DNA from: a virus
IMG/VR virus record: IMGVR_UViG_3300036772_000557
Span: 26,449-90,448 of that record
Length of the DNA stretch: 64,000 nt
Reading direction: 5' to 3' (one strand)
In this document: positions 4,238-62,015 of the stretch, piece by piece
Layout of the letters: the number at the start of each line of letters is the position of its first letter
Position numbering within the stretch: position 1 is the stretch's first letter
Position numbers and translations under genes: made by a program
Notes under the pieces: model-generated
What the model was told of the DNA's origin: nothing
Database searches by the model: none
Seen by the model: only the letters and a program-made list of their open reading frames with translations

Positions 4238-4699
4238 TTAAAATAGCCGCATCTTGACGGCTGCGCCTGCAGCATCCGCGGCGGTGATTGACAACTGTTT
4301 GGTCCCGTCGTCCCCGACGGTGAGCGAGCGCGCCAGCACCAGCTGCATCCCCCGAACGGCAATAAAGCTGGGATCGCTAGAAGTCAGCGTAATTGCGCCG
4401 ACGGCCGGAACCGTTCCGTCCGAATATTGCACGGTGGCGGTGGCAACTACGGTGCCGGCTGGAGAATTATCCGGGATGCTCGGAGCCGGCGGCGCGACCG
4501 ACATCACCAGCGTGCGCGCGGGTGGCGGCGGTGGGTTTTTAATGGTGACCAGCGAGCGCGAGTTCGTGTCTGTATTAACGAGCAGGTTTAACAGCAGGGT
4601 TTTCTTCGCGTCATAGATGCGGATCGCCACCTGTTTTGACGGCAGCTTGGCCTCGTCGATAACGATGCTGTGCGCATTCGCGAGTGTTTGGGCGGCCAT
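4238..4699 (-). CDS. Protein with PPPPP linker and C-terminal cadherin-like domain
   Basis: PSIPDNSPAGTVVATATVQYSDG...LSITAADAAG matches the cadherin pattern. Confidence 0.7.
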   Translation of the reverse strand: MAAQTLANAHSIVIDEAKLPSKQVAIRIYDAKKTLLLNLLVNTDTNSRSLVTIKNPPPPPARTLVMSVAPPAPSIPDNSPAGTVVATATVQYSDGTVPAVGAITLTSSDPSFIAVRGMQLVLARSLTVGDDGTKQLSITAADAAGAAVKMRLF

Positions 4700-5802
4700 C
4701 AGGACAAGTCCTCTTCGGCACAGATCTCAAAGTCAAGAATCGCGCCGCTCGGCAACGTATCGCCGTTGCAATTGATGCAGATGAAATCATTGAGCCCGCG
4801 TAGCTCGATAGCCTTAACCGTGTCGCCGAAGGTCCAGATCGCGTCCGTACTCGGTCCGGTCGCCGCGACGTTCAGATACATGCGCTTGACGCCGGCATGG
4901 CCGCCTGCCGCAGTGCCGAGCGACCCGTAATTCGCGGTCTGGACATAGGAGACCGTGAGCGTCGCCGCCGCATCGTTGATGTCGTGCTGGAAAGCCGTGA
5001 TTGCGGTAAGCGTCGCCGATCCGAGTGTCCCGGCCGTCGAGCGCCGGATTATCTGGGCTGTAAGCTGGCCGGCTGTCGTCGCTTTGCCGCCGACCTTGAT
5101 GTATTTGATGCGGCCGGTCTTCGAAGCCGAGCCCTGGATCACGAGCACGTCGGTTGGCGTCGCTACCGGCGTGATGCCGGTCACCGAATAGCGATAGGTC
5201 GCCTTGGTCCCGTCTTGTGAGACAAGCGTAACCCCGGGACCGCCCGGCGCCTGCCGCGCTTGGTTGAACTTAAAAGCCGACGCGGTGTACGACGCGGTGT
5301 GCGTGAACAACGCGCCGCCGGCAGGGAACTGCACAGAGATGCTGGTGTTGGCGACGACCGCGGTGATCAGCGCCGATTCGTAGCTCGCCGTTCCGGGCTC
5401 GAAATTGGCCGTCCCGCCGACCACAAATCCGGTCGTGTTGGCGGTATTGAGTGTCGCCGTAACCGTTGCGGCAGCGCACGACGAGGTCATGGTCGTGAGA
5501 AATTCCTGTGCGAGGCTCGGCGCCGACGCGGGCACACCCCTCGCGGAAATCAGGTCGGAGCCGGCGTTGCGGAGCACGTCGAAATAGAGGCCCGCAGCGT
5601 TGCGCACCTTGACGACCGCGCCGACCAGCATGCTGTAGACGCCGCTGCCCAGGTTCTGGTTCTCGGCCGTATGGTTATCCACCACCGCCTGAACGCCGGT
5701 GACCGGGTCGGTGACGGAGGAGGAACTGACGTGCTGGCCGCTGACGACCTGAGTTTTCAGCGTCTGCGTGGTGCCGGAGGCGTCGGTAATATTAAGAGCC
5801 AA
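4699..5802 (-). CDS. Putative virion structural/fibre protein
   Basis: Thr/Ala/Gly-rich beta protein of 367 aa in the tail-distal module. Confidence 0.65.
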   Translation of the reverse strand: MALNITDASGTTQTLKTQVVSGQHVSSSSVTDPVTGVQAVVDNHTAENQNLGSGVYSMLVGAVVKVRNAAGLYFDVLRNAGSDLISARGVPASAPSLAQEFLTTMTSSCAAATVTATLNTANTTGFVVGGTANFEPGTASYESALITAVVANTSISVQFPAGGALFTHTASYTASAFKFNQARQAPGGPGVTLVSQDGTKATYRYSVTGITPVATPTDVLVIQGSASKTGRIKYIKVGGKATTAGQLTAQIIRRSTAGTLGSATLTAITAFQHDINDAAATLTVSYVQTANYGSLGTAAGGHAGVKRMYLNVAATGPSTDAIWTFGDTVKAIELRGLNDFICINCNGDTLPSGAILDFEICAEEDLS

Positions 5803-5912
5803 TGCAAATGCTCCGCGAGAAATAAAAGATCAAGACCAAAGGAACCACCAATAACGGCGTGCACTATGCCGCCCAGCGGTAAGCGTCGCCAACAAACAGA
5901 GATCCATTTGAT

Positions 5913-6863
5913 TCACACGAGTTGGTCGACCTGGAACGTACCCTTCCAAGTCGCGAATTGATCATTCGCGAATTGCTGATCGGTCGAGGCATATCCTGCG
6001 ACGCTGGTGCGTTCCAGGTTGTAGGTATCATCGGGGAACGGCACTACCGCGATCGGCGATGACTTGCCGTTGATTACTGCGAGGGCGAGCGGCCGCGAAA
6101 AAACCTGATCGCCGCGACCGACATAGATCCCATCCTGCAGCAGGAAATCGACGCCGAGGCTGAGTCGCCGGCTGATCGGGCGTTTGACGACATAGGTCGA
6201 GCCGAAGGTGACCCGGGTCACGTCGGAAAGATCGATGGTCGAGATCGACCAGCCGTAGGACATATTGACCGGCGCTTGCCAGATCTCGCAGGCGCCGAGG
6301 AACCCGATCTGAACCGGGATGATGCTGCCGCTGACCGAGACGTTTATCGAGTTGGCGCTTACTGGAACCGGCGGTACAAAAAATCGCGGCCGACCGAGCG
6401 CATACCATTCGACGGCCGGATAGACGCCGTTTCCGTCGTTCGCCCAGGCCGGCACATTCCCGCTCGTGTAAGTCCCCGCGGTGACCGAGATCGTGGCGCT
6501 GACGTCGGCGATAAGATTCTGAATGTGGATGAGGCCGATCGTGCGCGTTGCGCCGAGATTGAGCGTGAAGCTGACACTGCCGCCACTCGCGATCGCGGTC
6601 AGCTGAGGTCGCGGGATAAGCATGTTGCTCGCTGGCGCGTTCGCCTGAAATCCACCTCCGGTGATGCTGGCTCCCGGTGCCTGGCCCCAATCGTAGTAGG
6701 ACACGATGAGGTAGCGGTTCCCGCTGCCAAAGCTGGGGCCTGGCCCCGGCAGGGGGGGTGGCCCACCTGGCGGAGGTGGCGGCGGCGGCGGCGCCGATAT
6801 GGTCGGTGGGGTGCCTGGCGGTGCTGGTGGCTGGCCTGGGGGGGTTGGCGGACCAATCGGCAT
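5913..6863 (-). CDS. Putative tail tip/distal tail protein with N-terminal polyproline extension
   Basis: Starts MPIGPPTPP. C-terminal NMSYGW...D.S...GSTYV..RP..RRL motif typical of alphaproteobacterial phage tail proteins. Confidence 0.7.
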   Translation of the reverse strand: MPIGPPTPPGQPPAPPGTPPTISAPPPPPPPPGGPPPLPGPGPSFGSGNRYLIVSYYDWGQAPGASITGGGFQANAPASNMLIPRPQLTAIASGGSVSFTLNLGATRTIGLIHIQNLIADVSATISVTAGTYTSGNVPAWANDGNGVYPAVEWYALGRPRFFVPPVPVSANSINVSVSGSIIPVQIGFLGACEIWQAPVNMSYGWSISTIDLSDVTRVTFGSTYVVKRPISRRLSLGVDFLLQDGIYVGRGDQVFSRPLALAVINGKSSPIAVVPFPDDTYNLERTSVAGYASTDQQFANDQFATWKGTFQVDQLV

Positions 6864-6979: not shown

Positions 6980-7738
6980 TTACTGCGTCGCCTGGATCGT
7001 CACGTTTTCGATGGTGCCAGCCGCCGCGCCGACGCCCGGGCCCGACGGGTTGATGATAAGGTTCGAGCCGCTGATCGCGTAGACCCCGCCGCCGTCGTTG
7101 TATGGCGCGGCAAACCCGAGCGTGCCGGTAAAGGTCGATCCGTCGCTCCAGGAAGCGGTGATCGTGCCGACCGTCGACCCGAGGGCCGCATTATCGACAA
7201 TCGCAGGAGAAACGGGTGAGACCGAAACGCTGAGCGTGATGTCGCGCGTGATCGCCTGCAGGCTCCAAAATGTCGCGGCGCACTGCGTGTCGGCGCATCC
7301 CATGAGCCATCTTGAGCCGTTCCATTTGGCGACTACAAAGGCGAGGTAAACCCAGGATCCGGAGAGATCTCCCGAAGACAGGCTGAGATCCGCAGTTGCC
7401 AAACCCGGATAAAAACTGCCGAAAAGCGCCTGAGAGGATGTGAGCGCGACTTGCGTCCAACTCGCTCCGTCGGTGCTGTAATAAGCAAATTTGTAGACGT
7501 ATTCGGTGGTGTCGGTGGCTGAGCCTACCGTGAGGGTGGTAGCGGCCGTCGTGCAATCGACGCTGCCGAGCAGCGAGTTCGGCGGATTGAACAGGTCGTA
7601 AGCACCTGCCCAGCCCGCAGGGACGGGAAGGGACTTGGAATAATATTCGGTGCAGCTGCCGAGCGCATGAGCCGGTCCGGCGCCGAGGCTGATCGCTGCG
7701 ATTAAAGCGGCGATGGCGGTGAGCGTCCGGAAACTCAT
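6980..7738 (-). CDS. Secreted protein: signal peptide, Cys-containing N-domain, C-terminal truncated cadherin-like domain
   Basis: MSFRTLTAIAALIAAISLGAGPAHA signal; ends TIENVTIQATQ. Start moved to the ATGA overlap. Confidence 0.75.
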   Translation of the reverse strand: MSFRTLTAIAALIAAISLGAGPAHALGSCTEYYSKSLPVPAGWAGAYDLFNPPNSLLGSVDCTTAATTLTVGSATDTTEYVYKFAYYSTDGASWTQVALTSSQALFGSFYPGLATADLSLSSGDLSGSWVYLAFVVAKWNGSRWLMGCADTQCAATFWSLQAITRDITLSVSVSPVSPAIVDNAALGSTVGTITASWSDGSTFTGTLGFAAPYNDGGGVYAISGSNLIINPSGPGVGAAAGTIENVTIQATQ

Positions 7739-8430
7739 GGGGCACCAATCGTCGTGACTTGCGCGGTGCCGTCGAGGCTCGGCGAGAGCGGCGCCGCGAG
7801 GACGACGTTGAAGCCGTCGATCCCGAATAATGGATTGCTCGAGGTTAATGTCCCCCCGTATGTAGATCCATCCGACATGTTCACCGTAGCGGTCGAAAGC
7901 ACCGTCCCCGTTGGCGTGTTGTCGGGAACCGTCACGCCTGACGGGTTCAACGTTATTGATGTGGGAGTCGACGTGGTTCCCTGGCCGCCGACGGCAGCAT
8001 AATAGGTATTGCCGCCCGCCACACTTACCGCGAGTGAGACCGATTGCGCAGCGGTACTGCTCGGAGTGAACGTCACGGTGACTCGGCATGTGGCCGCAGG
8101 AGGCGGGGGCGGGGGCGACGGCGGTGGCGTAACAGGGGCTCCCGGAGCGAGCGAGCCGGCGCAGTCGTTCGTCTGGGAAAAATCAGCCGTGTTGCCGCCG
8201 GTGAATGCGATTCCGAAAGAGATCGTCGATGTTCCGTCATTGGTCACATTGATGGTTTGGGAACTCGCGGTGCCGACGCCTATCGTAGGAAAGGTCAGAA
8301 ACGCTGGGCTGAAGGTGACCGTGTTTCCGATCGAGACCGCGACGTTCACCGTGGCTGTCGTCGCGGCAAGGAGCGTGCTGCTCGCCAGCAAGGCGCCCAT
8401 CAAGAACGGCAGAAGGAATCTCTTGTGCAT
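7735..8430 (-). CDS. Secreted protein: signal peptide, N-terminal strand, ASH/choice-of-anchor-D-like Ig domain, truncated cadherin-like domain
   Basis: MHKRFLLPF signal; LTFP..VG...QT..VTN.G...DF..TNDC..SLAPGA..C.V.VTF.P Ig motif. Confidence 0.75.
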   Translation of the reverse strand: MHKRFLLPFLMGALLASSTLLAATTATVNVAVSIGNTVTFSPAFLTFPTIGVGTASSQTINVTNDGTSTISFGIAFTGGNTADFSQTNDCAGSLAPGAPVTPPPSPPPPPPAATCRVTVTFTPSSTAAQSVSLAVSVAGGNTYYAAVGGQGTTSTPTSITLNPSGVTVPDNTPTGTVLSTATVNMSDGSTYGGTLTSSNPLFGIDGFNVVLAAPLSPSLDGTAQVTTIGAP

Positions 8431-8496: not shown

Positions 8497-11217
8497 TCAA
8501 GCCGACGGCGGCGCCAAAGCGCTGGTCGGGTTGTATGGTGTGACTGTCGATCCGGTGCTCTGCCAGTAGGCGACGTCAGCCGCGGTGAGATCGCCGACAT
8601 AGCCGGGCACGTTCGGATCGATCGCGGCGGTTGGCTGAATGATTTGATAAAGGCTGGCCCCGGGCCTCGGCGTCGGCAGGGTGCCTGCATATGGGGTCAC
8701 GGTGACCCCCGTGAGGCCTTGCCAATAGGCAAGATTGGCCGGCGTAAGATCCCCGACATAGGTTGGCCCGGTCGGCTGAGTGATGAAATACAGCGCCGTC
8801 GCTGGGCTTATCGTGATCGTTTCGGTGGCCGAGCCGGTTTGCCCGGCCTCCGTCGCGGCGACGGAGAAGGCGGCCCCGGGGTCGACCGTAGCCAGGTTGC
8901 GGCTGAGCACGAGATAGGTGGTGACCCCGAGGGGCAGGCCGGTCGGAGCCGTGTACGGGACGATGTTTGAACCGGTGCCCTGCCACCAGGCGACATCTGC
9001 CGCTGTCAAATCGCCGATATAGGCTGGCGCGCCGGGCTGGGGCTGGGTGATCTTATAGAGCGCCGCCCCCGGCCGCGGCGTCGGCAGGGTGCCGTTAAAA
9101 GGGGTGACCGTCGCGCTGGTGAGCTGCCACCATAGCAGGTTGCGCGGGGACAGCGCGCTAACGTAGGCCGGGCCGATTGGCTGGGTGATGCTGTAGAGGG
9201 CGGTGCCAGGCGGTGTGGTCAGGACCGGGACGGCGCTGCTGGCAGTCAGGTAATTGGTTGACCCGGCGAAAGATACCGACAGCGTCCCGGTAAATGCTGA
9301 CCCGTCGCTCATGCGGACCGAGACCGACGCGATGACTGTCCCGGCCGTCGAATTGGCCGCAATAGACACAGTCGCGGGCGTGAGGAGCACGCTCGGCACC
9401 GGAAGCCTCGCGGGGGGTGGCGGCGTCGTACCACCGCCGCCGGCGCCGGGACCACCGCCGCCGGTAGGCGGAGGCGGCGGCGTCATATAAGGCGGTGGCA
9501 AGGGCAGCGGGGTAGGCGCTGCGGGCACTGTGCCGAGGACCCCCCATAACTGCAATGTGGCCGGACCGCCACCGATGGCGCGAATCGCCGAGACGATGCG
9601 GAACGTCCCGGTGACCATCATGTAATCGAGCTCGACCGTGTCGTAGAGGATGATGTCTTCGGGGCGCATCCACGCGGTCACATCAAACACGGTGCGGTTG
9701 CCGCCCCATGCCGCGATCAGCCGCGTCTGCTCGTTGGCGGCATCGGTCGGCAAGGGGCTGGTGCCAGCGAGGAGCGGGACATCCACCGCCCGGGGCTCGA
9801 GGGCGAGCGCGTTGGGGTTCTCGTAGTGCGGCTCGTAGACCAGGCCCGGCGCCGACCATTTTGCAATGTCGGTTTGCAGCACAGCGTCGTCGAAGGAGCT
9901 CTCGGGTTGCCAGTTGCGCTGCGAGCCCACGCGGAGCCGCCACGCGAGGGGCTGGATCGTATTGAGCGCGATGCTGGCGATCTCGACTTCGGTCAGCTTG
10001 TAGCTAGCCGTGACGGCCGGCGCCGCAATCGCCGCTCCCGTCGCCCGGCCGAGCGGGTTGAACCCCCACCAACACCCGGCCGCGTTCACAAAATCATCGA
10101 TTGCGGCGAGGCGATTGACCGGTGTCGTAGTCGTGACGAGGCTGGCCAGTTGGTTTGCGGTCGCAAGATCGAGCGCGGCCAGAGCCGTCGCGTCGACCAG
10201 GCCGCCCGCGAACTGGACGACCGCCGTGATCAATTGGCCGACCGTGTAGGACGCGGCCACCCCGTCCGCCCGAACATCCTGCCCTTGTGGCGGCGAGCCG
10301 AGCTGGATGCGCTGCGGGACGCCCGCGATCGAGATTGGCGACCATTGCCCAGGCTGGGGCGGCGCGATCACCTCCGTCCACGGCACGCCGCCGACCCTGA
10401 CCTCATTGATCGTGGTGAGACCTTGCGGCAGCGATTGCAGTTCGTAGAGTTGCTGTGTCTCATCGACAATGACTGGCTGCGCCGAAAAGAACGCGCCCCG
10501 CGCCGTCGGCTTGGGCTTGCCTTGCAGCGCGACCGGAAACGTCACATCGTAAAAATTGGTGACCAGCGGGTTGTCGATGTCGAGGCTGGCGTCGGTCGTC
10601 TGGACCGTCGCGACGAGCGTGTCGTGGGTCAGCCCGAGGATGCGTCCGACATAGACCGGGACCATGTCGGCGTCGACATCAGCGACGGGGACCAAAGGGT
10701 TCGGCGGGGTGCCCTCGTAGACCCGGAAGGTTCGACCGATCCAATGGTAGGCCGTCCATATCCAGATCGACTCGTCGATGTGGAACTGGATCGCGCCGCG
10801 GTTCGGCTGCGTGCGGACTGGCTGGCCGTAATCAGTGACGGTGATCGCGGCGCCGAGTTGGATCGGTAATCCGGTGAGGCGCGGGGAATATTCAAAGAGC
10901 GCGCCGCCGAGCGTGCGAGTGACGGTGCCGCGGTTGCAGAGCATAAGGGTGACCAGCGTGCCGCTATCGTCGAGAACATCGAATTCAACCGCGACATATG
11001 GACTGACGCGCGGTGGCGGTGGCGGCGATCGCGGCGCCGCTGGCGGGGGTGCTGGCAGCGACGGTGGGGGCGCCGGCAGCGGAGGCGGTGGCGCCGGCAC
11101 GGGTGGCGGCGCGGTCGGTGGCGCTGGCGTAGGCGCTGGCGTCGGCGTCGACTCGGGTGGTGGTGCGCCCGGCAGTGCTGGCGGCTGGGATGGTGGGGTT
11201 GGTGGGCCAATCGGCAT
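8497..11217 (-). CDS. Putative tail hub/tip protein with polyproline N-terminus, cadherin-like domain and four WQ repeats
   Basis: Located downstream of the tape measure and fibre genes; LQGKPKP..RG..F...P..VD motif; 906 aa. Confidence 0.7.
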   Translation of the reverse strand: MPIGPPTPPSQPPALPGAPPPESTPTPAPTPAPPTAPPPVPAPPPPLPAPPPSLPAPPPAAPRSPPPPPRVSPYVAVEFDVLDDSGTLVTLMLCNRGTVTRTLGGALFEYSPRLTGLPIQLGAAITVTDYGQPVRTQPNRGAIQFHIDESIWIWTAYHWIGRTFRVYEGTPPNPLVPVADVDADMVPVYVGRILGLTHDTLVATVQTTDASLDIDNPLVTNFYDVTFPVALQGKPKPTARGAFFSAQPVIVDETQQLYELQSLPQGLTTINEVRVGGVPWTEVIAPPQPGQWSPISIAGVPQRIQLGSPPQGQDVRADGVAASYTVGQLITAVVQFAGGLVDATALAALDLATANQLASLVTTTTPVNRLAAIDDFVNAAGCWWGFNPLGRATGAAIAAPAVTASYKLTEVEIASIALNTIQPLAWRLRVGSQRNWQPESSFDDAVLQTDIAKWSAPGLVYEPHYENPNALALEPRAVDVPLLAGTSPLPTDAANEQTRLIAAWGGNRTVFDVTAWMRPEDIILYDTVELDYMMVTGTFRIVSAIRAIGGGPATLQLWGVLGTVPAAPTPLPLPPPYMTPPPPPTGGGGPGAGGGGTTPPPPARLPVPSVLLTPATVSIAANSTAGTVIASVSVRMSDGSAFTGTLSVSFAGSTNYLTASSAVPVLTTPPGTALYSITQPIGPAYVSALSPRNLLWWQLTSATVTPFNGTLPTPRPGAALYKITQPQPGAPAYIGDLTAADVAWWQGTGSNIVPYTAPTGLPLGVTTYLVLSRNLATVDPGAAFSVAATEAGQTGSATETITISPATALYFITQPTGPTYVGDLTPANLAYWQGLTGVTVTPYAGTLPTPRPGASLYQIIQPTAAIDPNVPGYVGDLTAADVAYWQSTGSTVTPYNPTSALAPPSA

Positions 11218-46827: not shown

Positions 46828-46880
46828 TTACAACAACCTCTCCGATCAAAAATACGGTCAGGGAGCATGATCGTCATACT

Positions 46881-49127: not shown

Positions 49128-49221
49128 GGATGCGAAAATCCTCCTGGCCCCGGACAATAAAAATCGCCGGGCGGGACGCCGCACCGGCGTCACCATGAAA
49201 TTGCGCCGTATAACGGCGTTA

Positions 49222-49812: not shown

Positions 49813-50042
49813 ACGGCTACAATGTTCGTCGCGGCTGTTCCGGTGCTCCACACCCGTTTCACACGGATCGGATGCCAGCCCGCCGCCGCGGCAGTAAAGG
49901 TCACCGTCTCGCCATTCAGCATGGTCACCGTTAGATCTCCGGCGATTCCGACATAGAGCGCGGTCGTCTTTGCCGGCAAGTCGACGCTGTCGCTGGGCGT
50001 TACCGCGACGGCATTTGGAACCGGATCGGAAATGTCAGCCAT
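49803..50042 (-). CDS. Head-spike base protein (RcGTA Rcc01079-like)
   Basis: AVTPSD..DL...T.ALYVG.AGDL.V....G..VTF....AGWHPIRV.RV..TGT.A..IVA pattern, 79 aa. Confidence 0.75.
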   Translation of the reverse strand: MADISDPVPNAVAVTPSDSVDLPAKTTALYVGIAGDLTVTMLNGETVTFTAAAAGWHPIRVKRVWSTGTAATNIVAVWQ

Positions 50043-50046
50043 ATTA

Positions 50047-53010: not shown

Positions 53011-53013
53011 GAT

Positions 53014-53760
53014 TCATTTATCCCGACAGTCTAGGGGTTTACGAGCGCGCAATTTATTGACATGACCATCAACGGGCGTGCCGTCTGGGTGCCGGCCCAT
53101 GAAGTAGTGCTTTCGCCAAGCAGCCTTTAGCGTGTCTGCATCGCCAGCATGAAACCGACGCATGAAGTCGTTACGCGAAGCCGTGAAAGCCGCATATCGG
53201 GTCTGCAGCTCACGGTTCCCCGAGAGGTCTCGGAGTTCGGGATGACAGTCGCTTATCGCCTGCTTGCGTACCGGGAAGATGAAGCAGAAGGGCTCCCCCT
53301 TCTCAAAGGCGACCGATCCTGGCGCCGTCATCCGCCAGTTCATCGTGAAGGGATACGGCAACCAGTCGCTCTCCATGATCCCGGTCAGCGGAGAGATCCC
53401 GTGTTTGGGCGAATTGAACGGCCCGGTGGCAAGCAAATCCCATTCCGCGTCGGTCTGAAAGATGTAGTCGGTGTGAAACGTCACGACGCCGCTCGTGAAG
53501 TGAGAGCGGCAGAAGTTTGCCACGTATTGGTTGGGCTCAAGCGAACGGACGATCAGGTCCTCGGCCCGTGGCCCGCCGTTCCATTCGAGCGATACGCCAA
53601 ACGGGCAGAGAATGTCCCAGCCGTGGGCATTGGCTATCGTCAGCGGCAGACAGCGATAGGCATGGCGCGCCGGAAATTCGTCCATCCATTTGCGTGCTAC
53701 CTGCGCTGGTGCAATTTCGGGCGGCTGTCGATTGAGCGCAAAACAAGTGAGGGCGGTCAT
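53014..53760 (-). CDS. DUF6065 family protein
   Basis: R.WMD.....AYRCLPL.IAN.HGW...WNGG...GP.N.PK.GI.PL.G..E.DW.PYPFTMNW...FEKGEPFC..FP. Confidence 0.8.
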   Translation of the reverse strand: MTALTCFALNRQPPEIAPAQVARKWMDEFPARHAYRCLPLTIANAHGWDILCPFGVSLEWNGGPRAEDLIVRSLEPNQYVANFCRSHFTSGVVTFHTDYIFQTDAEWDLLATGPFNSPKHGISPLTGIMESDWLPYPFTMNWRMTAPGSVAFEKGEPFCFIFPVRKQAISDCHPELRDLSGNRELQTRYAAFTASRNDFMRRFHAGDADTLKAAWRKHYFMGRHPDGTPVDGHVNKLRARKPLDCRDK

Positions 53761-53761
53761 T

Positions 53762-55750: not shown

Positions 55751-55761
55751 TTGCCCGCTCC

Positions 55762-56616
55762 TCACTGCACGGCGGTGAGGGTGACGTTCTGAACGGTTCC
55801 GCCGTCTTTGCTGACGCCGGAGCCTGCCGGATCGATGTAGAGGCTGCTTCCAGATAGGGCAAAGGTGCCCCCGTCATTACTGTAGGGCTGCGCAAAACCA
55901 ATGGTGCCAGCAAATGGGTGGCTCCCGTTCACATCGTCGCTCCAATCCACATTTACGGTAGCGACCGCGGTGCCGGGAGGGCTATCGGCTGTGATCGTCG
56001 GATTAGCTGGATTGAAGCTCATCACGAGGCTCGGAGGCGGCGGCGCGCTCGGGGTAAAGGAGATATCCACCCAATAGTTGCTCGCCTGCCAGGTACTGTT
56101 AGGCCGCAGCAGTGACGATCCGTAGATGTAGACCCCGTTTCCCAAAGGCGCGGCGCCGTTTGCCAGCGCGATCAGCGGCCCCGAGGTTACCTGATTGGCC
56201 AACCCTTGCTGGTCATCGGCGTAATGGCCGCCCTTGACGAAATAGGTCGCGATGTAGGTTTTGTTGGCCGTGATCGTCAGCGGCGTGGAGAAATCCAGCT
56301 CTTCCCAACATGGCACCGAGCGGCAAGGTTCGGTGGAGACGCTCTTGAAGGCCAGCCGCGCGCCGCTCGTGTCATCAAAGATGCCGACCGAATATCCGCT
56401 CGAGCTCTTCGCGCCTCGGTAAAACCGCACGCCCTTAATGGTTCCGGCCTGCGTGCTGTAGAACTGCACGCCGAGAGTGACCGAGTTCGTGTCGGGATCG
56501 ACCGGTGTCTTGGGAGTGTCGGTCCCGAAAAGCGTAACCACCGTCTGCGCGTGAGCCGTCATGGAGAGGAGGGCTGCCGCAACAATCAACAGCCACGCCG
56601 TCGAGCCGATTTTCAT
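55762..56616 (-). CDS. Secreted DUF4082-domain protein with C-terminal truncated cadherin-like domain
   Basis: D..SV.LGV.F.S..AG.I.GVRFY...W....F.TP..I.AN.TY.A.Y...NGVY.YG....P...SNYWVD..F; ends TVQNVTLTAVQ. Confidence 0.85.
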   Translation of the reverse strand: MKIGSTAWLLIVAAALLSMTAHAQTVVTLFGTDTPKTPVDPDTNSVTLGVQFYSTQAGTIKGVRFYRGAKSSSGYSVGIFDDTSGARLAFKSVSTEPCRSVPCWEELDFSTPLTITANKTYIATYFVKGGHYADDQQGLANQVTSGPLIALANGAAPLGNGVYIYGSSLLRPNSTWQASNYWVDISFTPSAPPPPSLVMSFNPANPTITADSPPGTAVATVNVDWSDDVNGSHPFAGTIGFAQPYSNDGGTFALSGSSLYIDPAGSGVSKDGGTVQNVTLTAVQ

Positions 56617-56631
56617 AACGATCCCCCAGCT

Positions 56632-56652
56632 TGTCATGCAAATGTCATGACA
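56632..56652. promoter_or_regulatory. Candidate operator: TGTCATG direct repeat (11-bp period), second copy in the palindrome TGTCATGACA
   Basis: Lies just downstream of the predicted promoter and next to a divergent RHH gene. Confidence 0.5.
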
Positions 56653-56712: not shown

Positions 56713-56898
56713 ATGAAAACCGCGAACATGCAGGTCCGCCTGACGCAACCGGAGAAGGAAGCGTTTGAGAAAGCAGCGCAATTGTCCGGAATTTCGCTGT
56801 CGTCCTGGGTGTGCGAACGGCTCCGCAGGGCGGCGATCGTCGAATTGCGCGAAGCGGGTCTCTCGATCCCGTTCCTGGAGGGATTCGGTGACGATTAG
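56713..56898 (+). CDS. Ribbon-helix-helix protein (DUF1778/CopG-like)
   Basis: MQVRLT..EKE.FE.AA.LSG.SLSSW....L..AA. Confidence 0.8.
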   Translation: MKTANMQVRLTQPEKEAFEKAAQLSGISLSSWVCERLRRAAIVELREAGLSIPFLEGFGDD

Positions 56899-59408
56899 TC
56901 TGCCATCCAGGGGGTAAGCCAGCAGCGGCACCCGTTATGCGCGAGCGGCGCGGCATGTCCTGACGGGAACAGATGCCCGAGCCGCACCGGGCTCGCGGCC
57001 TCGTTCAATAGACACGTCGCCTCGACTTTGAGGTCAGCGACGGTATTCCAATACGAGCCCTTGACCCGGTTGCTCGCCTTGAAGGCCCGCATCGTCGCGT
57101 CGTGCAGCGCGCTCTTCGTCTCGTAATCGGCGATCGCGCGCGCTCGAGTTGGCGAGAAGGCGTAGGTATTTTGGAGTACGCCGGTCAGCTCCTCGACCGT
57201 GGACTTTTGCGCGATCGCCTGACGCACATTTTCGGCAATCATGCGCGCGGTCGAATCCGTGATGTCGAGATCGGCGGTCGTGTCCGGGATAGTCCGGCCG
57301 CCGACATGGCTGCGTCCGACGAGCTCGGCTGCCCGGTCCCGGGCCCATTTGCGTGCCTCGGCCTTGGCCGCCTCGACCTGAGCGTCGGTCAACTCCGCAT
57401 GGACCGCAGCAAGCGTATCGGAGATGGTCTGTGTCGCCGTGTCCTCGAGGTGCGGCGCGATCTCGCCGACGATGTCGTTCCACCGCGCGAAGTCGATGCC
57501 GGCGATTGCTGCGGCGGCTGCTGCCGAAAGCTGTCGATTCCGGTGCGCATCTGCGGCCGGGGTGACGCCGTGCTGATCCGGATCCGTGTGGTCGGAGGCC
57601 TTCGAGTTATAATTTGAGTTATAATTTGAGTTATATTTTGCGGTCGTTTTCCGCGCGAGCACGTCGCGCGCGACGCGTGGCGCCTCGCCCTTAAAGAAGA
57701 CCTCGATGCTCCGGGCTATGCCGTCCCGCGCCGTCGCCAGATAGCGCCTCGACGCCGGATCGCCAAAAGGGTCGGTGCCTGCTTTGGCTACCCCCTGAAC
57801 TTTAGCAGATTTAGCAGGGGCTTTTCCGGTTGGAGCCGGCTTGCCCTTGGGCTTGGCCGGCCCCTTCCCCGGCGCACCGCCGCCGCCCATGCCCGCGCCG
57901 ATCGGCGGGGGCGGTGGCGGGTTTGCCATGTTGTCGCTGATCGCCGCGACATCGCTCAGGAGCACGGGACCGGTTGGTAGATAGATCATCGGATCATCGC
58001 CGCCCTCGACCGGATCCATGCCGAGCACGTCGCGCGCCTCATTAAGCGTGTAGCTCCCGTTCCGCACATAGGTATCGAGGATCGTGGCCTGTTCAGCCGG
58101 ATCGAGGTCGCGCTTCTCGGCCCACGCGAACTCCAGGTCCGCATAGCCCATCAAATCCTGGATCACCCCGTCGCACAGACGCTTGACCCAGGCCATGATC
58201 GGGGCGAGGCCTTCCTCGAGCGCCACCTCTTGCGCGGTCTGCGCGGTCGCTCGGTTGACCTGATGCGTGAAGGCGCTCGGCGGCAATGAAAAGGCGTAGC
58301 ACACGATGCGCGCTAGCCACTCGTCGAACTCGTCCTTGTAGGGCGGCTCGGTGAAGGGCTGGTATTTGGCTCCGAACGGGCCCCAGATAAGGCGTGTCTG
58401 ATTTTGCAGATTGCCCGCCAGGATGGAGTTGAACCATTCCGCGTATTCGGCGATCTGCTGGGGACTCCAGCCTTCGGGACTATTCAATAGCCCGGGCGGT
58501 ATGTTCCCGTCCGTGAAATGAAGTAACTGCTTGGCCTGCCGGCGCAAGCCGATGTTGATGGTCGTGTAAATTTGCTCGATTGGGCTGAAGCCGTAGCCCT
58601 TATAGATCCGCGGGTTGCGGGGCAGGTAGATCAGCTGGCCGTCGTTGAACTGGTTGACGACGTCGCCCTCGTCGGTATTGGCCCTGCTGCCGTCTTCGAG
58701 GAGCACCCATGGCCGCCCGTGAATGACCTGCTCGTAGGCCGGCGCCGGGGGTCGCGGGCGGCGCCCCGTCTCATCGAGCAGCACTTTGATGGTCGAGCCG
58801 TCGACTTGGTCGAGGCCGATGATCTCGTTCGCGCGATTGCGGCGCACTTCGAGCGCTGGCGCATCGATCACCAGCACGTCGTCGAGGAGCTCGCGGATCC
58901 AGGTCGCGAACGGCCTGATCCCATCTGGCTTGCGAAAGAAGTCTTCGATCTCGTCGCAGCGACTGTCCGCCTCTTTTTTCGGGTCGCGCGGCTTAACCTG
59001 AAATTGCTGGGACTCGATTTGATCCTTACGCGTCTCGATCGCAAGCCGGGTGATGTCGTGGCCGCTTGCCAGCGCGCGCAACTCCTCAAAGCCGATTGGC
59101 TCATAGGATCGCGGCCGATAATTCGTGTTCCACGCTGTGGGGTAATTCCACAGCCGCACATTTTGCCGGTCAGTTGGCACCAGCGGATAGTTCGGCGAGA
59201 ACATTCCCGCCGTCGGCTGGAACACCGGCGCGAACTGCGAGATGTCGCCGCGCGCATTGCCGCTCAAACCAGTCGGATCATTGCCCATAGTGTAGCTGGC
59301 GATTGGCGCGCCTTTTTTCTGCTGCGGCTGCCCACGGAAGCGCGAGGTCAGCCAGCTCACCATGCCGGCAAGAGAGGTTTGCGAGCCGCCAGAACCGGGA
59401 GCAGGCAT
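56895..59408 (-). CDS. Portal protein fused to a Mu gpF-like minor head domain
   Basis: AIETRKDQ...YGFSPIEQI...F.DGN.P...DEFDEWLARIVC.AF..PP...TLNEAR..LG.DP..GGD; C-terminal RAR.IA..ET...P.AH.GCRC. Confidence 0.92.
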   Translation of the reverse strand: MPAPGSGGSQTSLAGMVSWLTSRFRGQPQQKKGAPIASYTMGNDPTGLSGNARGDISQFAPVFQPTAGMFSPNYPLVPTDRQNVRLWNYPTAWNTNYRPRSYEPIGFEELRALASGHDITRLAIETRKDQIESQQFQVKPRDPKKEADSRCDEIEDFFRKPDGIRPFATWIRELLDDVLVIDAPALEVRRNRANEIIGLDQVDGSTIKVLLDETGRRPRPPAPAYEQVIHGRPWVLLEDGSRANTDEGDVVNQFNDGQLIYLPRNPRIYKGYGFSPIEQIYTTINIGLRRQAKQLLHFTDGNIPPGLLNSPEGWSPQQIAEYAEWFNSILAGNLQNQTRLIWGPFGAKYQPFTEPPYKDEFDEWLARIVCYAFSLPPSAFTHQVNRATAQTAQEVALEEGLAPIMAWVKRLCDGVIQDLMGYADLEFAWAEKRDLDPAEQATILDTYVRNGSYTLNEARDVLGMDPVEGGDDPMIYLPTGPVLLSDVAAISDNMANPPPPPPIGAGMGGGGAPGKGPAKPKGKPAPTGKAPAKSAKVQGVAKAGTDPFGDPASRRYLATARDGIARSIEVFFKGEAPRVARDVLARKTTAKYNSNYNSNYNSKASDHTDPDQHGVTPAADAHRNRQLSAAAAAAIAGIDFARWNDIVGEIAPHLEDTATQTISDTLAAVHAELTDAQVEAAKAEARKWARDRAAELVGRSHVGGRTIPDTTADLDITDSTARMIAENVRQAIAQKSTVEELTGVLQNTYAFSPTRARAIADYETKSALHDATMRAFKASNRVKGSYWNTVADLKVEATCLLNEAASPVRLGHLFPSGHAAPLAHNGCRCWLTPWMAD
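57604..57639. repeat. 12-bp AT-rich tandem repeat (GAGTTATAATTT)x3 encoding YNSN repeats in the portal-gpF linker
   Basis: Seen directly; the third copy has one mismatch. Confidence 0.9.
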
Positions 59409-59441
59409 TTTCAGCTACTCCCTTATTCCAGCGATATTAAT

Positions 59442-60587
59442 TCAAGCAGCTGAGCGTAATTTTGCTGCTGCTCGATCTGTGGATTTCGGCGCGCTGATGC
59501 GGCGCTCGGCCATCGCGGCGTAAGCGGGGTTGAGTTCGATGCCGATGCAGTCGCGCCCTAGCCGATCGGCGACCAGCGCTGTCGTTCCGGCACCGAGGAA
59601 CGGATCGCAGACAGTGGCCGGTATTGGATCGCCAGCATTGCAGGAGCAGGAGGGGCGCCAGCCGATGGTCGCGTTGCTCGAATACCAAGGCGCCTCACAC
59701 TTCGGGCAGACGCCCCGAGCGGAGGTGCCGGCGAGGATGCACGGCTCGACCAGAGCCGGCGGGAAGGTCGCGAAATGCGCCTCGGGATAGGGCGAGGTCG
59801 CGATCGTCCAGACCGAGCGCTTGTTGCGCGTCCCAGACGATGAATATTCTTGGTCGCCCCGATGCGCATTGGCGGCGACCAACTGTTCCGAGCGTCCAAA
59901 GCGAGATAATGATCCGCCCCGAGACTTTCCGGCTGGATCGACGCTTGGCTCCTTGATCGCCTCGCCGTCGTAGTAATAATGGGCCGTTTTGCTCAGCAGA
60001 AACAAATATTCATGCGCCGACGTCGGGCGATCACGCACCGATTCCGGCATTGGGTTAGGCTTCGACCAAATGATGTCTCTCCGCAGCCACCAGCCATCGG
60101 CCCGTAGGGCGAGCGCCAGCTGGGCGGGAATCATTAGGAGGTCTTTGGGCTTATATGCCGTTTGCAGCGACCGTGAGCCTTCATCTTTCGCTTCGGTATT
60201 GCCGGGGAAAGCCGGGTTCCTCGCCGCCGCCGCAACTTGTACTGGGGATAGGGACTCGAGTTTTGGTCCTCCCCCAATGTGCCCATTGCCACGCAATGTA
60301 GAATGTTTGCTCGGCGGGCCACCTCGGCTCTGTCCCAAGGAAGCGTAGCTATCCCCGATATTGAGCCACAGCGTGCCGTCCTTGCGGAGCACCCGCCGCA
60401 CCTCGCGGAACACCGCAACCAATGCGGCGATATATTCGTCAGGCGACTTCTCAAGTCCAATCTGCCCCGACACCCCATAGTCGCGCAGTCCGTAGTACGG
60501 CGGGCTCGTCACGCAGCAATGCACGCTGTCGGCAGGCATGGCACGCAGGCACGCCAACGCGCTGCCGATCTGAATCGAGATCGCCAC
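59442..60587 (-). CDS. DNA methyltransferase (N4-C/N6-A, beta class)
   Basis: TSPPY, IW.KPNPMPESV.DRPT.AHE, HFATFP, DPF.G.GTT. Confidence 0.93.
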   Translation of the reverse strand: MAISIQIGSALACLRAMPADSVHCCVTSPPYYGLRDYGVSGQIGLEKSPDEYIAALVAVFREVRRVLRKDGTLWLNIGDSYASLGQSRGGPPSKHSTLRGNGHIGGGPKLESLSPVQVAAAARNPAFPGNTEAKDEGSRSLQTAYKPKDLLMIPAQLALALRADGWWLRRDIIWSKPNPMPESVRDRPTSAHEYLFLLSKTAHYYYDGEAIKEPSVDPAGKSRGGSLSRFGRSEQLVAANAHRGDQEYSSSGTRNKRSVWTIATSPYPEAHFATFPPALVEPCILAGTSARGVCPKCEAPWYSSNATIGWRPSCSCNAGDPIPATVCDPFLGAGTTALVADRLGRDCIGIELNPAYAAMAERRISAPKSTDRAAAKLRSAA

Positions 60588-62015
60588 TCAACCACCATCT
60601 TCTCGCTGCTGCATTTCGTATTCCACGCTGCCCCGCGCATATACTGGCTTTGGCGCCGGCGGCGGTTTCGGTTTCAGAGACTCGGCTTTAGCCTTGGCCC
60701 AGAGGAAATGACCCTCGCTCGCCATCTGCTCGACGAGGAGATCACTGAATGCCCAGACCAGTGCGTCGACGCGGTCGGGCGAAAACCCTGCCGCGACGCG
60801 GTCAAAATCCGTCGTGAACCCGCACATCTGATCTTCGAGTGTCGGGAACGCGCCGACGTGATGGATGCGGCCTTGCTCGTACAATGCCGCGACGGGCTCA
60901 GCCCGCACGACTTTGCCACGCGTCGCTCGCACTGCGGAATAACTCACATTATTGTCGACCATGCGAATGGTCGCTTCGACCATGTCGCCGCCGTTGTTGA
61001 CCTCGGCGACGATGCGGTCGGCCTTGTGCTGCCGGTAGAGAGAGATTGCCTTGCGCGCCCATTCGGTAGGCGGATAGCGCCCGGATTGATCGGCGAGCAC
61101 ATAACCGTGTCCGTCGGCGTCTTTGCCGGCGACGATGATGCCCGTTTCGTCCGAGTCCTCGCCGGTGGACACTGCAGGATCGATTGCTACTGCGATCCGC
61201 ACTAGGTCAGGCACATTCTTGTGCACTGGCCAGCGCGATGCTTCGAGCAATTCGCGGTTCCACAGTGCGCCCGGAACATCGTCGAGGAGCTCGGCGTTGA
61301 GTTCCTGGCGGCCGAGGCGGGTGCCCTCGTACTTGCGGATGATCTGGTGCAGAAAGCCCGGTGCCAAATTGGCCCGGTTGTCGTATGTCGAGCCGCGCGT
61401 GATCACCGTGGTTGGGTCGGTGAGGAGCTCGCGGATGATCTTGATCGGCTTTGGCGTGGTGGTAACGACGACGCGCGGGTCATCACCGAGACGCAGCCCG
61501 AACATGAGCATGTCCCAGGCTTCCGGGTAGCGCCAGCTAGCTATCTCATCGCACCACGCGGCGTCGTGCTGCGGCCCGCGTAATCGCTCTGGTTCGTCGG
61601 CGCTGTAAGTCGTGGCGATGGCCCCATTGGGCCAAGTGAGCCGCCGCTTCGAAGGTTCGTAAAGCGGCCGCTCTTGCGGTAACCCGATCGCAAGAATTCC
61701 GCTCTCGCCCTCGACCATGACATCGCGGGCGTCGCCAGCCGTTGGTGCAACTAGAGCGATCCGGCGCCGACCGTGGTTGATAACCTGATCTTGCACATAT
61801 TCCGCGCCGGTTCGGGTCTTGCCGAAGCCGCGACCAGCCAACAATAGCCATGTGCGCCAGGCACCGGCCGGCGGTAATTGATTAGGCCGCGCCCACCATT
61901 TCCAGCCATGCTCAAAGACGGCAATATCGTCCTCATTCAGGCTTCGTAAAAACGCCGCTCGCTTCAATGGCGGCAGCAATGCGATCGAGCTTACGTCCGA
62001 CACGTTCTCGTGCAT
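60588..62015 (-). CDS. terL: Terminase large subunit
   Basis: AGRGFGKT Walker A, W.DE Walker B, VTTTP, AIDPA and SPDR.DALVWA nuclease motifs. Confidence 0.95.
   Translation of the reverse strand: MHENVSDVSSIALLPPLKRAAFLRSLNEDDIAVFEHGWKWWARPNQLPPAGAWRTWLLLAGRGFGKTRTGAEYVQDQVINHGRRRIALVAPTAGDARDVMVEGESGILAIGLPQERPLYEPSKRRLTWPNGAIATTYSADEPERLRGPQHDAAWCDEIASWRYPEAWDMLMFGLRLGDDPRVVVTTTPKPIKIIRELLTDPTTVITRGSTYDNRANLAPGFLHQIIRKYEGTRLGRQELNAELLDDVPGALWNRELLEASRWPVHKNVPDLVRIAVAIDPAVSTGEDSDETGIIVAGKDADGHGYVLADQSGRYPPTEWARKAISLYRQHKADRIVAEVNNGGDMVEATIRMVDNNVSYSAVRATRGKVVRAEPVAALYEQGRIHHVGAFPTLEDQMCGFTTDFDRVAAGFSPDRVDALVWAFSDLLVEQMASEGHFLWAKAKAESLKPKPPPAPKPVYARGSVEYEMQQREDGG

Follow-up and report, generated by a model that had tools for sequence, protein, structure and literature searches.

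The window, i.e., the whole stretch of 64,000 nt that was analysed, carries 58 called proteins (19,094 aa, 6.5% proline). Fifteen of them contain at least one PPP, including the portal, tape measure, protease-scaffold and large terminase (TerL) proteins. All of the polyproline tracts listed in the original prediction were located, and all are on the minus (coding) strand. They had been described as occurring in more than ten unrelated proteins; the tracts stand, but the proteins are not all unrelated, as several have a C-terminal module of ~85 aa in common and two have their first ~20 residues in common. Several of the tract proteins have apparent signal peptides, as judged by eye.

Number, codon usage and density of the tracts

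Runs of three or more prolines number 27 in the 15 proteins, compared with a mean of 6.98 (sd 2.52, maximum 17) in 1000 within-protein shuffles. There are 14 runs of P≥4 in ten proteins (shuffle mean 0.64), six of P≥6 (mean 0.01) and three of P≥10 (mean 0), and none of the 1000 shuffles reached the observed values. Among the 58 called proteins, no residue other than proline forms a run of eight or more. An uncalled ORF of 88 aa (38331–38597) holds two further PPP. The coding strand holds all 23 (CCN)6 windows of the 90 kb genome and the opposite strand holds none, leaving no poly-Gly counterpart; the run lengths yield the same number of P6 windows. The codons within runs are mixed (CCG 61, CCT 27, CCA 26 and CCC 20; total 134), and the share of CCT plus CCA is 40% in runs compared with 23% elsewhere (chi2 19.1, p 2.6e-4). 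Mixed codons had been taken to exclude slippage, but the P91, P42 and P22 tracts found in related metagenome-assembled genomes (MAGs), which are hardly anything but expansions, also mix CCG, CCA and CCT.

The frequency of PPP is not ordinary for this GC content, as had been anticipated. At 3.66 PPP windows per 1000 aa, the window is 7–17 times as dense as comparators of the same GC, of which the head-module set covers head and not tail genes, and the tail-module set consists, except for phage G019, of proteins only. The corresponding values are 0.28 for head-module loci of capsid relatives in IMG/VR (80 loci, 224,558 aa), 0.40 for 23 MAG prophage loci (122,423 aa), 0.27 for Brevundimonas phage Polewnik (14,708 aa), 0.51 for MAG chromosomal regions (43,097 aa) and 0.22 for this genome's own first 26.4 kb.

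Tract positions in head, tail and surface proteins

The tracts are found between a catalytic or binding domain and the C-terminal ~85 aa module, at the joints of a beta-helix with swapped or duplicated N-domains, at the point of a portal–MuF fusion, ahead of a GH30-like domain, at the N-termini of two tail proteins and in one Ig-like surface loop. Twelve of the 14 runs of P≥4 are at module junctions or in N-terminal extensions, one is the Ig-like loop insertion, and one, in the tape measure, is outside both groups as counted. Alignment to homologues bore out the expectation that the tracts are lineage-variable, since tract length differs, or the tract is absent, at the same sites.

In TerL, a PPP (60657–60665, minus strand, as are all tracts and genes below; residue 451) lies in the C-terminal tail, past the Pfam terminase domains, which end at residue 424. 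The portal protein (Pfam portal, residues 128–463; Mu F, 724–831) has a P6 tract (57903–57920) at the junction of the portal domain with an extra Gly/Lys/Pro-rich segment and MuF-like domain. The portals of the 21 relatives examined end 2–28 aa past a common ...GPV(L/P/Q)L... end, where the window protein has P6 and the fused domain, and a 93% identical portal (L145) carries NPPQPPP at the tract site, i.e., PPQPPP compared with PPPPPP.

The product of gene 55762–56637 has a P4 linker (56032–56043) between its DUF4082 domain (residues 40–190) and the C-terminal ~85 aa module. At this junction L145 has P5, G019 (a complete phage of 69.8 kb) has P4 and L146 has none. The linker sequence TPSAPPPP(S/T)L is kept between DUF4082 homologues at 45% overall identity. 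A P5 linker (4520–4534) likewise precedes the C-terminal ~85 aa module of protein 4238–4699; over residues 57–96, this protein aligns with the DUF4082 homologue of G019 across the linker and the beginning of the module. In gene 46881–48308, a P4 tract (48132–48143; residue 56) is directly ahead of a GH30-like domain (XynC-like match, residues 64–449). In the secreted protein 44161–44796, a P11 tract (44560–44592) separates a small N-domain bearing Cys from a repeat-beta C-domain, and the C-terminal residues 103–197 of the protein match designed propeller/trefoil repeats. A P5 tract (24929–24943) occurs at residue 271 of the 2882 aa tape measure protein, and PPPAPPP (37187–37207) near the C-terminus of protein 37094–37600.

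The 906 aa tail protein (gene 8497–11217) begins with a Pro-rich stretch of ~68 residues (11011–11217) that includes six P3–P5 runs (11011–11163). None of 11 homologues has this extension, and they start ~10–25 aa ahead of a conserved AVEFD. At the joint between its conserved body and C-terminal modules is a Pro/Gly-rich linker (9412–9498; PPP, P5 and P4); all 11 homologues are Pro-rich there and 9/11 have at least one PPP by reading of the alignment, with differing length and sequence. Protein 5913–6863 has a Pro-rich N-terminal extension of 49 residues (6717–6863) containing P8 (6768–6791) and a PPP; alignment from residue 1 is seen in three of 101 cluster representatives, and the best full-length representatives begin at query residues 50–53. 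The first ~20 codons of these two genes are ~85% identical. The N-terminal MPIGPPTPP...PG common to the two different tail proteins, with similarity starting exactly at the ATG, runs counter to a spacer role, and its sequence is more suggestive of a docking or recognition element that the two proteins share.

The sequence PPPSPPPPPP (8098–8127) makes up the core of 14 residues inserted into a loop of the ASH/HYDIN-type Ig-like domain of the protein encoded by 7735–8430. The original prediction that a tract interrupts this domain was confirmed: the 14 residues are absent from an 81% identical homologue (P0003), in which the Pfam match is continuous (model positions 3–94 of 100), and the ASH/HYDIN matches of the window protein end just ahead of the insert. 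An AF2 model of low confidence (pLDDT 44), the sole model covering a tract, places the insert between strands 83–90 and 113–122. A pair of near-identical homologues (94% identity) differ here in length, with PPPS--PPPPPP in one and PPPSLPPTPPPP in the other. This insertion is not between domains, an observation that sits awkwardly with a spacer role.

The beta-helix protein and its operon

The three longest tracts (P12, P10 and P11) are all in a 13 kb accessory block with a hydroxylase-like operon, and two of them are inside the operon; this clustering is a further observation counter to a purely spacer role. The first operon gene encodes a DUF6065 protein (53014–53760; PF19541, E 7e-92), and its stop is 3 nt ahead of the start of the beta-helix gene (50047–53010). 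A small phrog_12296 ('tail fiber protein') gene (49803–50117; E 2.3e-24) follows, its ends overlapping both neighbours, and then a prolyl-hydroxylase-like 2OG-Fe(II) oxygenase gene (49222–49851; PF13640), the likely start of which is the ATG at 49812, giving 196 aa. The P12/P10 gene is therefore placed in one tight operon between the DUF6065 and oxygenase genes. In a MAG (G015), chromosomal genes for an oxygenase (73% identical) and a DUF6065 protein (64% identical) directly adjoin, and so the phage tract gene sits inside the enzyme pair.

In the 987 aa beta-helix protein, P12 (52351–52386) joins N-domain 1 to N-domain 2, and P10 (51679–51708) joins N-domain 2 to the right-handed beta-helix domain. 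Homologues have one N-domain only. The nearest relative of the first domain is P0016 (59%) and those of the second are P0015 and P0017 (60–63%), compared with 44% identity between the two domains. With different nearest relatives and single-domain homologues, the P12 tract is therefore placed at a recombination joint. The junction between N-domain and beta-helix, P10 in the window, is PPVPPP in P0015, P7-T-P6 in P0016, P5 in P0017 and without a tract in P0018.

The oxygenase retains the HxD...H...R motif, with H107, D109 and H167 invariant and R177 nearly so among 11 sequences. Its PDB sequence matches include P3H1 (8e-9) and B. anthracis P4H (4e-4). The top fold matches of its AF2 model (pLDDT 86.6) are P3H1 (TMq 0.79), PBCV-1 vCPH (5c5t; TMt 0.74), BaP4H, PPHD and PHD2, so that the predicted fold is closest to prolyl hydroxylases. 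Human P3H1 (leprecan; 8k0e, 8k0m), the best match by both sequence and fold, differs in acting on collagen in a complex with CRTAP and PPIB. PBCV-1 likewise is a virus encoding a small enzyme of this fold together with Pro-rich proteins, but identity is 17–19%, and the present system has a bacterial host, a DUF6065 partner, a homopolymeric candidate substrate in the operon and an enzyme activity that is predicted. Weak oxygenase homologues occur in 63 GenBank phage records, mostly cyanophages, among them genes annotated as 'leprecan protein' in Synechococcus myophages, whose records name no substrate. At E≤1e-3, DUF6065 homologues are absent from the GenBank phage records. Lake phages in IMG/VR (L005, L190–L242) do carry a cassette of the same two enzyme families, with a Pro-rich tract gene no more than a few kb away on the same strand, but they differ in GC (34–46%), in having 2–11 oxygenase copies and aromatic Pro repeats, in gene order, and in showing 25–33% identity to the window proteins.

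Spacers, substrates and other explanations

The tracts occur where independently folding modules are joined, and probably they are polyproline (PPII-type) spacers kept there by selection at the protein level. The original prediction, that they serve as tags or substrates rather than as linkers, fits poorly with 12 of the 14 longer runs being linker-like in position. Proline-rich spacers of modular secreted and surface proteins are familiar in the TonB and PT types. A review (PMC12856214) places polyproline segments often in inter-domain linkers and near N-termini. Interdomain linkers of this kind resemble the present tracts in lying between independently folding domains, in varying between homologues and in having small flanking residues. 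The phage runs differ in being pure proline of up to P12, not Pro/Thr or Glu-Pro/Lys-Pro mixes, in their unusual density (15/58 proteins, 7–17 times comparators) and in one run being inside an Ig-like fold. The same tracts in phages lacking the modifying enzymes had been named as evidence against selected tags or substrates, and this was found in part: G019, without PF13640 and PF19541, has 1.39 PPP windows per 1000 aa, and two of its homologues match, with the same TPSAPPPP(S/T)L linker in the DUF4082 protein and P5 at the beta-helix junction. In related soil Alphaproteobacteria MAGs, the C-terminal ~85 aa module recurs on proteins with giant tracts, some even longer than those of the window (P12, P13, P22, P42, P91 and (APPP)~45), far from any PF13640 gene.

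A different proposal, which is possible though doubtful, is that the operon of DUF6065 protein, beta-helix protein, small fibre-type protein and oxygenase makes hydroxyproline in the beta-helix rods, and perhaps wherever else the phage exposes a polyproline linker. By analogy with plant and Chlorella-virus P4Hs acting on Pro-rich repeats, the rods would become stiffer or be primed for glycosylation; according to a review (PMC3634087), PBCV-1 P4H hydroxylates Pro-Ala-Pro-Lys repeats. The tight gene order, the retained motif, the model and the position of the tract gene inside a pair that adjoins in G015 favour it. So do 80 loci from IMG/VR, each carrying a DUF6065 homologue, of which 51 also have oxygenase homologues (up to 11 copies): a Pro-rich tract on the same strand occurs in 28/51 with oxygenase and 2/29 without (odds ratio 16, p 1e-5), although these loci are closely related among themselves and the p value overstates the support. 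The tracts of the 28 loci are mostly (PPFF/PPYF)n, 2–6 kb upstream, and L191 (36% GC) has a P7/(ASPPP)n/P6 tract 1.8 kb upstream of DUF6065. Against this, G019 has tracts and neither enzyme. No polyproline protein is encoded within 8 kb of the G015 pair, where a lipoprotein with 16% Pro and a C-terminal tail, ...LLPPPPVAVPDAP, come closest. PPP density is ordinary (0.51 per 1000 aa) in nine PF13640 neighbourhoods from four MAGs, the giant-tract genes of the MAGs are not near PF13640 genes, and three high-GC viral DUF6065 loci have no run of P≥4. Prolyl hydroxylases with this fold have EF-Tu or HIF-type targets as well; P. putida PPHD and B. anthracis P4H, which act on EF-Tu (4iw3, 5v7y), are, like PHD2, among the top matches of the phage enzyme. 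This offers elongation factor Tu as an alternative, non-structural candidate target, and the ordinary chromosomal context of the G015 pair is no less compatible with a cellular target than with another.

Neutral expansion is an unlikely explanation. A lineage prone to CCN-repeat expansion could leave tracts with no selected function at tolerant sites (linkers, termini and loops), where they are indeed found, and the length polymorphism between 94% identical homologues and the P91, P42 and (APPP)~45 tracts of related MAGs indicate that expansion is active in the group. The strict strand and frame bias, the absence of tracts from equal-GC capsid relatives and from the opening 26.4 kb of this genome, and the TPSAPPPP(S/T)L linker kept in divergent proteins argue otherwise. 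CCC is under-used and CCT and CCA are enriched in runs, which points to selection against C homopolymers with the prolines kept. PPP motifs stall ribosomes and need EF-P, and tract genes would plausibly depend on EF-P as a consequence. That the tracts are a translational device, in which EF-P-dependent pausing times or lowers late-gene expression or aids co-translational folding or export of an upstream domain, is very improbable. Their spread over 15/58 proteins, including structural and packaging ones, two N-terminal tracts and the apparent signal peptides would suit it. In the first review (PMC12856214), linkers, sites before membrane segments and sites near N-termini are given as possible pause sites for such tracts. 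However, homologues manage without a tract at the same site, position and length are not conserved as a timing device would need, and the phage encodes neither an EF-P N-domain nor a tRNA, both of which were looked for, to tune pausing.

Under the preferred spacer reading, tracts would arise and rapidly change length as CCN repeats are inserted or deleted, single bases change and the joints recombine, which would account for P0 to P13 at the same site with conserved flanks. Each would keep its flanking domains apart as a stiff, protease-resistant rod, and ribosome stalling, with the resulting need for host EF-P, would be a side effect and not the purpose. Because the gene of the two operon tracts lies between the DUF6065 and prolyl-hydroxylase-like genes, the longest tracts may additionally be hydroxylated by the operon's enzyme; such hydroxylation is compatible with a linker role and adds a modification to it. 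The high tract density would follow from the heavily modular nature of the tail and accessory genes. In this soil prophage, runs of 4–12 prolines connect the modules of many tail, portal and surface-binding proteins, to a far greater extent than in its relatives, and from their sequence contexts the tracts may be read as marks of recombination joints.

Organisation of the late region and its accessory block

The window is the final 64 kb of a single-contig virus record of 90,448 bp, a provirus by IMG/VR class with a CheckV completeness estimate of 83%. The GC content is about 62%, with almost every gene on the minus strand. The late region is of the siphovirus type by Pfam and PHROGs matches, with genes for TerL (60588-62015), portal (56895-59408), a protease-scaffold protein (40942-43470), capsid protein (39335-40864), connectors, tube (32535-33545) and a tape measure of 2882 aa (17105-25753), and with tail-tip genes extending down to ~4.2 kb. 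A phage tail lysozyme domain lies inside the tape measure (residues 732-854), a radical SAM gene (30786-32018) and a glycosyltransferase-like gene (28105-29661, phrog_14945) are found within the tail/connector region, and the terminase region is flanked by two N6/N4 DNA methylase genes (59442-60587 and 63311-64000). The capsid protein shows ~74% identity to 80 soil IMG/VR fragments and 24 prophage loci of soil Alphaproteobacteria/Stellaceae MAGs, and 38% identity to Brevundimonas phages Polewnik and Strzyga.

Between portal and protease is a 13 kb accessory block (43521-56637) with a GC content of 56-59%, lower than the rest. It encodes a GH30-like enzyme, a membrane protein, a beta-helix protein, DUF6065, DUF4082 and an oxygenase, as well as proteins with apparent signal peptides (judged by eye). 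The corresponding gap is ~0.9-6.7 kb in 22 relatives where both genes are visible, and holds none of the window's accessory-block genes. Viral contigs scanned with 8497-11217, 50047-53010 and the homologue P0010 gave no usable tail-module or accessory-block DNA, and neither of the metagenome scans yielded anything, so the tail comparisons are built on proteins together with G019 (a CheckV-complete phage of 69.8 kb) and the loci L145 and L146.

Frequency of polyproline tracts and a probable dependence on EF-P

All the tracts named in the original prediction were found in the window. The 58 called proteins (19,094 aa, 6.5% Pro) contain 27 runs of at least three prolines, spread over 15 proteins, of which 14 reach at least four residues, six at least six and three at least ten (a run of n prolines is written Pn). 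Shuffling within proteins gave expectations of 6.98±2.52, 0.64, 0.01 and 0, and the observed counts were reached in none of 1000 shuffles. Ala is twice as abundant as Pro and has no run of eight or more in the called proteins. The genome has 23 (CCN)6 windows, every one on the coding strand and none on the opposite strand, and this number equals that of the P6 windows computed from run lengths. Their density in the phage is 254 per Mb, against 10-13 per Mb in three host-like MAGs; MAG counts take in other reading frames too, and that of a fourth MAG is inflated by C homopolymers.

Ordinary PPP frequency for this GC content does not account for the tracts. The window (18,855 aa) has 3.66 PPP windows and 0.69 runs of at least four prolines per 1000 aa, compared with 0.22-0.51 PPP windows across the reference sets, although the head-module comparators do not extend to tail-tip genes, which hold many of the window's tracts. 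The corresponding values were 0.28 and 0.01 for 80 IMG/VR capsid-relative loci (60.7% GC; 738 ORFs, 224,558 aa), 0.40 and 0.02 for 23 of the 24 MAG prophage loci (122,423 aa; L103, at 3.1 kb, was too short to include), 0.22 and 0 for the first 26.4 kb of the window's own genome (22 ORFs), and 0.51 and 0.05 for MAG chromosome around PF13640 genes (43,097 aa). In phage Polewnik (59% GC), the first 50 kb, with 69 annotated CDS, gave 0.27 PPP windows per 1000 aa and two P4 runs in total. The tracts are thus real and strongly enriched. A Pfam scan of 59 proteins found no polyproline-binding reader domain (SH3, WW or other).

A review describes PPP motifs as requiring EF-P (PMC12856214). Essential virion proteins are among the 15 of 58 that carry PPP, and it is therefore reasonable to infer that the phage is strongly EF-P-dependent; it would be expected to be unusually sensitive to host EF-P. 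Such dependence would be a consequence of the tracts and does not speak for a purpose. Genes for tRNA are absent from the phage, as is an EF-P N-domain (the control matched 14 of 14 genomes). The radical SAM gene was considered as an EpmB-like modifier of EF-P, and was rejected because its best matches are to viperin, NirJ and MoaA types, far below cut-off.

Positions of tracts within proteins

Twelve of the 14 runs of at least four prolines are placed at a domain edge (Pfam/NCBIfam), at a break point in homology or in an N-terminal extension. The others are a loop insert and a P5 in the tape measure. At the beta-helix, DUF4082 and tail-protein junctions, tract length and sequence differ between homologues while the flanks are conserved.

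In the portal protein (837 aa) the portal domain (Pfam) extends to residue 463 and P6 is at 497, with a C-terminal part made up of a Gly/Lys/Pro-rich segment and then a Mu-F-like head-morphogenesis domain (724-831). A portal match was seen in 22 relatives and 21 were examined (L035 was left out); all 21 portals are unfused and stop 2-28 residues past the shared end, near residue 490-515, and therefore the P6 opens a lineage-specific fusion. The L145 portal (93% identical) has the same Mu-F fusion, with NPPQPPP at the tract position. The DUF4082 protein (55762-56637) has its domain at 40-190, P4 at 199 and then a recurrent C-terminal module of ~85 aa; the junction carries P5 in L145, P4 in G019 and no tract in L146. 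The GH30-like protein has P4 at residue 56, directly ahead of its XynC-like match (64-449), and in protein 44161-44796 a P11 stands between a small N-domain and a repeat-beta C-domain.

The longest tract, P12, parts the two N-domains (D1 and D2) of the 987-aa beta-helix protein (50047-53010), and P10 parts these from the beta-helix. Five homologues have a single N-domain each, and a helix junction consisting of PPVPPP, P7-T-P6, P5 or no tract. D1 is nearest to homologue P0016 (59%) and D2 to P0015/P0017 (60-63%), while D1 and D2 are 44% identical to each other; D1 was therefore probably acquired by recombination, the joint being marked by P12.

The ~85-aa module (...PDN.P.GT.V.T..V..SDGS.F.G.L...) has no Pfam match. 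It is attached to six otherwise different proteins (4238-4699, 6980-7738, 7735-8430, 8497-11217 at aa ~605-660, 35666-36064 and 55762-56637), and three of the copies are preceded by a polyproline run. One of these is the P5 of protein 4238-4699, in which residues 57-96 can be aligned with the G019 DUF4082 homologue over its linker and the beginning of its module.

Tail protein 8497-11217 has a Pro-rich N-terminal extension of ~60 residues that is missing in all 11 homologues (43-72% identical). A Pro-rich stretch follows the conserved body end (...ATLQLWG.LG.VP) in all 11, and by eye this linker contains at least one PPP in nine of them, in differing sequences. For protein 5913-6863, only 3 of 101 cluster representatives align from residue 1 with a similar MPIGSPTPPGSPGALPG... 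start, and the best full-length representatives (P0020-P0026) begin at query residues 50-53. These two genes share ~85% DNA identity over ~60 nt from the ATG, with unrelated sequence upstream, so that the first ~20 residues, MPIGPPTPP.QPPA.PG.PP, are common to two different tail proteins (6804-6863 and 11158-11217). This shared start may serve for docking or recognition.

The loop insert is in the Ig-like domain of protein 7735-8430, which reads ...DCAGSLAPGAPVTPPPSPPPPPPAATCRVTVTF.... at this point. The 94% identical homologue P0002 has PPPSLPPTPPPP, and the 81% identical P0003 has ...NCGGSL------TAAPHGNTCQVTVTF.... P0003 passes the HYDIN_VesB_CFA65-like_Ig cut-off (26.0 against 25.5 bits) with a contiguous match over model positions 3-94 of 100. 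The window protein is itself below Pfam cut-offs (Cep192_D4, 23.9 against 35.5 bits; ASH, 23.0 against 27), its ASH and HYDIN matches end at model positions 61-69, right before the insert, and its Cep192_D4 match takes 100 residues for a span covered by 86 in P0003. The proposal of a tract inside a conserved fold is upheld, with the reservation that the window protein falls short of these cut-offs. An AF2 model of 7735-8430, the only model covering any tract, puts a strand on either side of the insert, which is itself coil, at low confidence (3 sequences; mean pLDDT 44). A PDB sequence search with this protein gave nothing useful.

Proline codons in the runs are mixed, with CCT/CCA making up 40% compared with 23% elsewhere (chi2 19.1, p 2.6e-4). 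Mixed codons had been taken to exclude slippage, a deduction that fails on the giant tracts of related-MAG proteins carrying the same C-terminal module (P12, P13, P22, P42, P91 and (APPP)~45), which are equally mixed in CCG, CCA and CCT, with CCC nearly absent. On the simplest reading, tracts would arise by multi-codon repeat indels and point changes (PPQPPP vs PPPPPP), with selection against C homopolymers. The module proteins with huge tracts are at soil alphaproteobacterial MAG loci L128 (G015:C5; P91), L119 (G008:C6; P22 and P42), L125 (G009:C1; (APPP)~45) and L121/L133 (G007:C3; P12, P13 and (P7APPA)n). A neighbour of the P91 gene is a homologue (27% identical) of window gene 45709-46827.

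The oxygenase, DUF6065 and the longest tracts

The beta-helix gene belongs to a tight series that runs, in order, DUF6065 (53014-53760), beta-helix protein, a small phrog_12296 gene and, last, a PF13640 oxygenase (49222-49851). The best PDB sequence matches of the oxygenase are prolyl 3-hydroxylase 1 (P3H1, 8e-9) and Bacillus anthracis P4H (BaP4H, 4e-4). H107, D109 and H167 do not vary among 11 sequences and R177 hardly does, giving an HxD...H triad plus a basic residue, which we take to be the iron triad and the 2OG-binding residue; their counterparts in the alignments are H127/D129 in the BaP4H chain and, in P3H1, the distal His and Arg. The AF2 model (pLDDT 86.6, pTM 0.85) is closest to P3H1, the PBCV-1 enzyme vCPH, BaP4H, PPHD and PHD2, and among the 35 Foldseek matches listed there were 33 prolyl hydroxylases (those five and one from Trichoplax), one lysyl hydroxylase and one uncharacterised oxygenase. 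The protein is thus modelled as a double-stranded beta-helix closest to known prolyl hydroxylases, and may hydroxylate peptidyl proline, here polyproline. A PDB sequence search with DUF6065 gave nothing useful, and its atlas name, 'vanillate O-demethylase oxygenase-like C-terminal', serves only as a lead.

In soil MAG G015 (L157, G015:C3:612897-614356) a DUF6065 gene directly abuts an oxygenase gene, their products being 64% and 73% identical to the window proteins, and the chromosomal surroundings are ordinary; the phage tract gene therefore sits inside a pair that adjoins elsewhere. By sequence, this points to capture of the phage enzyme genes from a host-type genome.

The best explanation of the tracts is that they are polyproline spacers, putatively in an extended, solvent-exposed PPII conformation, at joints formed by recombination or fusion in a highly modular phage, with two additions: one genuine loop insertion and one shared Pro-rich N-terminal motif. 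Linkers rich in proline are well known as such. Hydroxylation of the longest tracts as putative substrates, on top of this, is a live possibility, though less likely than not. The location of the P12/P10 gene between DUF6065 and oxygenase speaks for it, as do oxygenase loci at which a window-based count of Pro-rich neighbours found (PPFF)n tracts: the lake-phage locus L005 combines a (PFFPPFF)n tract with five oxygenase paralogues and a DUF6065 homologue, and L008, L012 and L013 carry that tract ~5 kb from an oxygenase. A DUF6065-alignment scan gave 80 IMG/VR loci (median GC 37%) of at least 537 relatives, with a same-strand Pro-rich tract at 28 of 51 oxygenase-bearing and 2 of 29 oxygenase-free loci (odds ratio 16, p 1e-5), a generous test since the loci are closely related; they hold 18 distinct tract sequences. 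Every minus-strand tract was excluded and counting was on the plus strand only; minus-strand 'tracts' in L200, L210, L213, L215, L216 and L220 are apparent antisense frames of Gly-rich fibre genes, confirmed for L215. Against hydroxylation, G019 lacks both PF13640 and DUF6065, yet its PPP windows number 1.39 per 1000 aa, its beta-helix junction carries a P5, and it shares the TPSAPPPPTL linker. No run of at least four prolines was found in three high-GC viral DUF6065 loci, the G015 pair has no polyproline neighbour, nine PF13640 neighbourhoods show ordinary PPP density, and the giant-tract MAG genes are distant from PF13640 genes. Matches to (CCN)6 near PF13640 genes in MAG G007 were ruled out, as the called ORFs there lack runs of at least four.

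The low-GC lake-phage contigs (L190-L242) carry (PPFF/PPYF)n tracts of 40-100 residues (e.g., L195 7581-7877 and L223 5771-5971), followed downstream by 2-11 oxygenase paralogues and a DUF6065 gene. In some lake phages Gly-rich fibre-type proteins (G6-G9; L215 4327-7315) adjoin oxygenase genes, and their antisense mimics polyproline ORFs, misleading six-frame counts.

The speculative extension, to which we give well under even odds, is an extensin-like system in a bacterial virus: a host-derived DUF6065 and prolyl-hydroxylase pair, split by a beta-helix (depolymerase-type) fibre gene, would hydroxylate the P12/P10 rods, and the same enzymes would serve the (PPFF)n rods of lake phages. Literature searches at the level of titles and abstracts gave no description of a polyproline-enriched phage proteome, nor of a prolyl hydroxylase encoded by a phage and targeting phage proteins. 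We know of no substrate for this widespread class of phage oxygenase, and the longest tracts, lying between DUF6065 and the prolyl-hydroxylase-fold gene, provide a concrete candidate. If true, this would supply a substrate for many unexplained phage 'leprecan/P4H-like' genes, and place hydroxyproline in phage particles or secreted phage proteins. Read as spacers, the tracts, with a quarter of proteins carrying PPP and pure runs of up to P12 exactly at fusion, swap and insertion joints, give a clear natural record of the assembly of modular tail and surface-binding proteins, and reveal the speed of evolution at such joints.
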